A DNA stretch of 64,000 nt. Origin: Escherichia coli (GTDB lineage: Bacteria > Pseudomonadota > Gammaproteobacteria > Enterobacterales > Enterobacteriaceae). Location of the stretch: assembly GCF_044324785.1 (NCBI RefSeq), contig NZ_CP172127.1. One strand, written 5' to 3'. The position numbers and the translations under genes are program-made. Shown piece after piece: positions 31,811 through 32,567 of this stretch (positions within the stretch are counted from its first letter, which is position 1; each line of letters begins with the position of its first letter). Under the pieces are notes generated by a model. The model had not been told where the DNA came from, ran no database searches, and saw only the letters and a list, made by a program, of their open reading frames with translations.

Positions 31811-32287
31811 ATGATATTATTTGTTGGATTTTTGTTGATGGAAATTGTTATGCCTCAGATTAGCCGGACCGCACTGGTACCCTACAGCGCGGAGCAAATG
31901 TATCAGTTAGTGAATGACGTTCAGTCTTATCCTCAGTTTTTGCCGGGTTGTACCGGAAGTCGGATTCTGGAGTCCACTCCTGGGCAGATGACTGCGGCGG
32001 TAGATGTCTCTAAGGCCGGGATCAGCAAAACGTTTACTACCCGCAACCAGTTGACCAGTAACCAAAGTATTCTTATGAATCTGGTGGATGGGCCGTTCAA
32101 GAAATTGATCGGTGGCTGGAAGTTTACGCCGCTGAGTCAGGAGGCGTGCCGTATCGAGTTTCATCTCGATTTTGAGTTTACCAATAAGTTGATTGAACTC
32201 GCCTTTGGCCGCGTGTTTAAAGAGCTGGCGGCTAATATGGTCCAGGCTTTTACGGTTCGGGCGAAAGAGGTTTACAGTGCCAGGTAA
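31811..32287 (+). CDS. ratA: Ribosome association toxin RatA (SRPBCC/polyketide-cyclase fold, YfjG)
   Basis: 158-aa ORF divergent from smpB. Confidence 0.85.
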
Positions 32288-32567
32288 AATTGCCGTTGAG
32301 GTGGCTTATGCGCTACCTGAGAAGCAGTACCTGCAGCGCGTGACGCTGCAGGAGGGCGCGACGGTTGAAGAAGCTATTCGCGCCAGTGGCTTGCTGGAAT
32401 TGCGTACCGATATCGATTTAACTAAAAACAAAGTCGGCATTTACAGCCGTCCGGCAAAACTGAGCGATAGTGTGCATGATGGCGATCGGGTGGAGATTTA
32501 TCGCCCTCTCATTGCCGATCCGAAAGAGCTGCGCAGGCAACGAGCAGAAAAATCAGCGAATAAATAA
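32277..32567 (+). CDS. ratB: RatB (YfjF), small protein of unknown function co-transcribed with ratA
   Basis: ORF 32193..32567; likely GTG start at 32277 ([18 protein letters not shown]…) gives 96 aa and overlaps the ratA 3' end by 11 nt. Confidence 0.7.

Follow-up and report, generated by a model that had tools for sequence, protein, structure and literature searches.

Position of the ratB start codon within ratA in Escherichia coli, and the likelihood that a conserved gene overlap links the translation of the two genes

Where does translation of ratB begin, and does the overlap between its 5' end and ratA link the production of the two proteins? These questions arise from a 64,000-nt stretch of an Escherichia coli chromosome (here called the window), in which the gene order is smpB, ratA, ratB, bamE, recN. 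The ratA gene (also called pasT or yfjG) lies on the plus strand at 31850..32287 and encodes 145 aa, as indicated by the PGAP annotation of the identical strain N3, the Pfam match of its product, and the conservation of the ATG at 31850. It is flanked upstream by smpB (31197-31679, minus strand). The ratB gene (yfjF or pasI), identified through Pfam PF03658, its PDB relatives, and PGAP, follows on the plus strand at 32277..32567 and comprises 96 codons plus a stop. The frame of ratB is offset by +1 from that of ratA, and the two plus-strand coding sequences share 11 nt (32277..32287), which end with the ratA stop codon TAA (32285..32287). Beyond them, bamE (32629-32970, minus strand) is convergent with ratB and is followed by recN, also on the minus strand.

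The 3' end of ratA reads AAA GAG GTT TAC AGT GCC AGG TAA. It contains both the Shine-Dalgarno (SD) sequence of ratB, AAAGAGG (32264..32270, within ratA codons 139 to 141, K E V), and, after a spacing of 6 nt, the ratB start codon GTG (32277..32279), which is supported by its conservation and by PGAP. An earlier note on this DNA had placed the start of ratB at this GTG, 11 nt inside ratA, and we found it to be right: a 96-codon ORF runs from there to 32567, the overlap spans 32277-32287, and PGAP calls the same CDS. The note was also right that an extension from 32193 would lie wholly within ratA, since 32193-32276 falls inside the ratA CDS, but the codon at 32193 that it gave as ATG reads TTG.

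Over the 1 kb from 31700 to 32700, the sequence shows 100% identity with E. coli strain N3, and nearly all of 5,426 complete E. coli genomes match it at 95-99%. In strain N3 and other E. coli, the RefSeq (PGAP) CDS of ratB starts exactly at the GTG at 32277, although the product names are still toxin RatA and antitoxin RatB. The E. coli K-12 genes (yfjG-yfjF) and pasTI of UPEC strain CFT073 are the same locus, with the same 96-aa RatB, the same GTG, and the same overlap, and do not differ structurally. The GTG start and the overlap are already known from RefSeq and from published papers: the pasI construct of Fino et al. (2020) kept the "original SC (GTG)" (PMC7424257), and a 2026 preprint describes the end of ratA as being overlapped by ratB (bioRxiv 10.64898/2026.05.04.722385). 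The re-annotation table from tetracycline ribosome profiling (TetRP; PMC4909307 supplement) lists yfjG but not yfjF among the altered starts, the text of a Ribo-RET preprint (10.1101/520783) does not mention yfjF or ratB, and the TRAINSPOTTER supplements contain no ratA or ratB entries.

For comparison, we took the locus from 80 more Enterobacterales genomes, each of a different species (RatB identity, 68-97%), and analyzed 80 junctions (79 of the collected loci plus the window) anchored on the start codon. Conservation of the GTG and of the ribosome-binding site upstream, which the earlier note had suggested as a check, was evident throughout. The ratB start codon was GTG in 79 of the 80 species and ATG in the other, a Xenorhabdus (L077), and it was preceded by an [A/C][A/G][A/G]GAGG-like SD sequence, always at the same 6-nt spacing. 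The predicted SD:anti-SD duplex had an energy of −6.5 kcal/mol for ratB in the window and ranged from −6.4 to −8.6 kcal/mol across the 80 species; that of ratA itself was weaker (−3.3 kcal/mol). The G at 32269, the last base of the GAG codon in ratA, was invariant in all 80 species. The T of the ratB GTG likewise occupies a third-codon position of ratA, yet it too was invariant across the 80 junctions.

Such constancy is rare in ratA. Only 3 of its 138 non-Met/Trp codons have an invariant third position across 78 species, with a mean third-position entropy elsewhere of 1.22 bits, and the SD G and the T of the GTG are two of the three. Calculated from 3/138, the chance that both of these named sites would belong to the invariant set is ~3e-4. 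The ratA codon holding the GT of the start differs at its first base among species (AGT Ser or CGT Arg), and the C-terminal residues of RatA vary too, so the constraint on the GTG and the SD acts at the nucleotide level and not through the RatA protein. Within E. coli, even the most divergent variants of the junction (93% identity over 71 nt) carried changes at synonymous or spacer sites only.

The protein family points to the same codon. RatB matches the Pfam family Ub-RnfH, PF03658, with an E value of 3e-35 (120.7 bits against a gathering cut-off of 23.7); the match spans residues 5-87 of 96 and all 83 profile positions. Its relatives in the PDB include 2hj1_A (E = 6e-28) and RnfH, 8ahx_H (E = 1.5e-13). 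Judged by this profile match and these solved structures, RatB is an RnfH-family ubiquitin-like (beta-grasp) protein. The ubiquitin-like domain is common to RatB, RnfH of the Rnf complex (PDB 8ahx chain H), and the Haemophilus influenzae RnfH-family protein (PDB 2hj1), and all three have short N termini ahead of the first strand, that of 8ahx_H being only 2 residues long. Unlike RnfH, RatB is encoded next to ratA and outside any rnf operon. Among 124 near-full-length cluster representatives with 45-75% identity to RatB, 110 start between −5 and +10 aa of the N terminus defined by the GTG (median, +2), and 12 longer representatives carry unrelated leaders. Taken together, these observations make GTG 32277 almost certainly the true start of ratB.

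Starts elsewhere in the same frame scarcely compete. TTG 32193 opens the longest ORF in the ratB frame and would give a protein of 124 aa through an N-terminal extension encoded by plus-strand positions 32193..32276, and TTG 32205 within that extension would give 120 aa. In 56 of the 80 species the frame is open from a TTG at the place of 32205, and there are a few database gene calls longer than 96 aa. However, the Phe-Gly codons of ratA account for the conservation of TTG 32205, only 33 of the 80 species have an open start-type codon where 32193 would be, and the 28-codon extension contains in-frame stops in 20 of the 80. The longer database proteins that we inspected (125-163 aa) were frameshift fusions or read-throughs, not extended forms of RatB. 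Downstream, GTG 32301 is a Val codon that shows synonymous variation, and a start at this codon would truncate the Pfam domain, the match to which starts at residue 5. None of the three codons has a usable SD sequence, the energies being −2.2 kcal/mol for TTG 32193, −0.9 kcal/mol for TTG 32205, and −3.8 kcal/mol for GTG 32301. It is the annotated GTG, not the longest ORF, that defines RatB.

The longest ORF misleads in the same way at ratA, so that the extensions from TTG 32193 (ratB) and from ATG 31811 (ratA) are both artifacts. The K-12 reference annotation begins ratA at the upstream ATG, which is 31811 here, whereas PGAP begins it at ATG 31850. We rejected the upstream start, which would give a protein of 158 aa: that ATG was present and open in only 46 of 78 species, while ATG 31850 was kept in all 78, and 24 of the 78 had an in-frame stop 15-24 nt upstream of the true start. 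TetRP had already moved the start of yfjG to an internal ATG (MPQISRT...; PMC4909307 supplement), and the Met14 form has been reported to be the only RatA made, the long form being the "toxic" one (PMC11988751). The third invariant synonymous site of ratA in the 78 species is codon 3 (CAG, 31856-31858), which adjoins the ratA start codon and may be constrained by the ratA initiation region.

The earlier note had called RatA toxin-like, a description that published work has overtaken. The toxicity has been traced to the misannotated 5' extension (PMC11988751); RatA itself is homologous to Coq10 (PMC7424257) and has been reported to bind ubiquinone (bioRxiv 10.64898/2026.05.04.722385). In our searches it matched the Pfam family Polyketide_cyc, PF03364 (E = 1e-38; 132.5 bits against a gathering cut-off of 23.4), and on the basis of this profile it is a member of the START/Coq10-like lipid-binding family. 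The label "toxin" for RatA is outdated. The locus does recall type II toxin-antitoxin operons in consisting of two small overlapping genes, and RatA and RatB were historically annotated as toxin and antitoxin. In such operons, however, the antitoxin gene usually precedes the toxin gene, whereas here the putative toxin gene, ratA, lies upstream, a point on which PMC11988751 agrees. Also unlike type II systems, ratB deletions are viable, the literature argues against a toxin neutralized by antitoxin binding, and no RatA-RatB complex has been demonstrated in it (PMC11988751, PMC7424257).

We then asked how far the overlap itself is conserved. Its length was 11 nt in 58 of the 80 species, 17 nt in 11, 8 nt in 10, and 20 nt in 1; all of the indels within it were multiples of 3, and both frames were kept. 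Metagenomic relatives with 45-54% identity also had a START-domain gene upstream that overlapped ratB. Four such loci (L083, L085, L086, and L088) had a 4-nt overlap in the form ATGA or TTGA, two (L089 and L090) had a 1-nt overlap in the form TAATG, and one (L087) had an overlap of 14 nt. Among the loci examined at 45-100% identity, we saw no intergenic gap between ratA and ratB where ratA lay upstream. The overlap is thus conserved as an arrangement and, as judged from these alignments, not as a sequence.

In the Citrobacter freundii group (L009-L023), a 6-nt tandem duplication at the position equivalent to 32277-32282 gives GTGTCA GTGTCG or GTGTCA GCGTCG, making RatA and RatB each 2 residues longer and the overlap 17 nt. 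In the strains in which the second copy reads GCG, the SD-proximal GTG is the only remaining start. At a more distant locus (L092:1100-1200, 65% RatB identity), the ratA frame contains an internal stop (SFI*QDKQVYGV*), no ratA is called, and ratB begins ATGGTG; this may be a case in which ratA is decaying and ratB has been retained.

The earlier note had held that the overlap implies translational coupling. The geometry permits it, and the persistence of an overlap across the family, at lengths from 1 to 20 nt, suggests selection for linked translation, but "implies" goes beyond the evidence. Translationally coupled overlapping pairs (the ATGA, TAATG, and NTGNNTGA classes) are likewise co-directional, lie on one transcript, and have an overlap conserved across taxa. 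As in ratAB, the start codon and SD sequence of the downstream gene are located inside the upstream coding region, and the distant relatives of ratAB carry the canonical ATGA and TAATG forms. The ratA and ratB genes leave no intergenic space for a terminator or promoter and have been described as a bicistronic operon (PMC11988751). Short co-directional overlaps in E. coli show tight coupling in reporters and are enriched for partner proteins (PMC10666635; reviewed in PMC12548453).

Other observations speak against the claim or are neutral. Stop-start distances of −8 to +6 nt have been taken as indicative of termination-reinitiation (Huber et al. 2023, PMC10666635). The distance of −11 nt found in the window and in 58 of the 80 species lies just outside that range, whereas the 10 species at −8 nt and the distant relatives at −4 and −1 nt lie within it. 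The 11-nt overlap of E. coli ratAB is longer than the experimentally tested −1, −4, and −8 classes. The SD sequence of ratB is strong, much more so than that of ratA, and no conserved RNA structure masking the SD or the start codon was found in either a single-sequence fold or a 34-species consensus fold. On balance we lean modestly toward functional coupling of ratA and ratB translation, and the two genes appear to be an ordinary overlapping pair whose translation is likely to be linked.

The explanation that we favor, with a probability of roughly 0.6, is that ratA and ratB are two cistrons on one mRNA, which probably ends at the hairpin at 32575-32603, that RatB is initiated at GUG 32277 on the SD sequence embedded in ratA, and that part of the RatB would arise by termination-reinitiation. 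Use of GUG 32277 through the SD at 32264-32270, inside the last ratA codons, is strongly supported. When a ribosome terminates at UAA 32285-32287, the P site should lie 5 nt beyond the GUG on its downstream side, and the SD sequence should still be within reach of the 16S rRNA tail (the anti-SD). Because the P site would be so close to the GUG and the SD so near the anti-SD, SD-assisted re-engagement is plausible, and a share of RatB could be made by just-terminated ribosomes or 30S subunits that re-engage at the GUG. RatB output would thereby be tied to RatA output. Since the SD is strong, some de novo initiation probably occurs as well.

The main competitor to this reading is that free 30S subunits use GTG 32277 independently, driven by the SD sequence, and that the overlap is a by-product of genome compaction or drift with no functional coupling. 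The strength of the SD (−6.5 kcal/mol, at an ideal 6-nt spacing) makes such independent initiation possible, and the initiation site has no occluding structure. The length of the overlap drifts freely (1, 4, 8, 11, 14, 17, or 20 nt), the overlapped codons encode the variable tails of both RatA and RatB, the reported amounts of RatB and RatA (about 50:30) depart from an exact 1:1 ratio, and the literature has found no RatA-RatB complex or functional link (PMC7424257; bioRxiv 10.64898/2026.05.04.722385). Against this, wherever ratA lay upstream in loci of 45-100% identity, the genes always overlapped and were never separated, short overlaps were generally coupled in E. coli reporter studies (PMC10666635), and a ribosome that stops 8 nt downstream of the first nucleotide of the GTG will physically cover the initiation site, which makes some interplay unavoidable. 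We regard fully independent initiation as unlikely, though as a serious contender. A different form of coupling, in which the ratB site is sequestered in RNA structure and opened by ribosomes reaching the end of ratA, is much less probable. It is a classical mechanism (reviewed in PMC12548453), and the SD and GTG are partly paired in the minimum free energy (MFE) fold of 32217-32336. That fold is unexceptional, however (z = −1.09, with 27 of 200 shuffled sequences folding as well), and the RNAalifold consensus for 34 species (−0.29 kcal/mol) leaves the SD and start unpaired and shows no covariation.

A programmed +1 frameshift in the overlap, producing a RatA-RatB fusion, would suit the +1 offset of the ratB frame, the rare AGG before the stop, and the SD-like element upstream, and fusions of RatA to RatB do exist in databases (P0017, P0008, and P0001). 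In our assessment, though, there is no slippery P-site codon, +1 re-pairing from GCC or AGG being poor, and the AGG-TAA context is not conserved, with GGC TAA, GGG TAA, or CCT GA found elsewhere. The database fusions join at differing points and look like indel errors. We consider programmed frameshifting the least credible of all these alternatives. In P0001, P0008, and P0017, the C-terminal part of RatA is joined to RatB by a change of frame in or near the overlap (e.g., AKEVYSAGKIAVEV), and these are probably assembly or sequencing indels.

Published expression data touch on the same question. RatA and RatB are present at similarly low levels, ~30 and ~50 copies per cell, respectively (Schmidt et al., cited in PMC7424257), and deletion of ratA strongly lowers RatB, with a log2FC of −6.75 (bioRxiv 10.64898/2026.05.04.722385). 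We did not accept this drop as evidence of coupling, because it is confounded by promoter loss: the −10 box of the ratA promoter falls within the ratA ORF as it used to be annotated (PMC11988751), and a deletion that follows this old ORF should take the promoter with it.

The arrangement also has practical consequences. The ribosome-binding site and first codons of ratB are also part of ratA, so that tagging RatA at its C terminus, tagging RatB at its N terminus, or deleting ratA will disturb the other gene as well. These side effects bear on the conflict in the literature between the toxin and Coq10 views of RatA and on a report that tagged RatB could not be detected (bioRxiv 10.64898/2026.05.04.722385).

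The family-wide overlap offers a small hint of a functional link between RatA and RatB. One could picture RatB being made next to RatA in fixed proportion and joining it in a co-translational complex with a role in the delivery of ubiquinone to the respiratory chain. What prompts this reading of co-assembly is the persistence of the overlap in gamma- and betaproteobacterial relatives, in forms that range from TAATG and ATGA to 20 nt. We hold it to be doubtful; were it true, RatB would acquire a role in ubiquinone delivery to the respiratory chain.

Downstream of the operon, a GC-rich hairpin with a 13-pair stem flanked by A6 and T6 runs (32575..32603, not assigned to either strand) lies between the convergent ratB and bamE genes. 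It probably serves ratAB and bamE alike as a bidirectional intrinsic terminator, at which the ratAB transcript would end; we infer this function from its structure and position. Within ratA, the plus strand has a second terminator-like hairpin (32153-32170), whose 6-bp stem runs into a T-rich tail. The region contained 3 terminator-like sites compared with 1.2 +/- 1.0 in shuffled sequences, and this weak hairpin may well be a chance match.

On the far side of smpB, the RefSeq annotation of strain N3 places a frameshifted ypjA/ehaD autotransporter pseudogene (25893-30459) near ssrA (30620-30982, minus strand), with a recombinase gene fragment (25318-25443) in the same neighborhood. The stretch from 25318 to 30982 looks like the remnants of an element integrated at the tmRNA gene.
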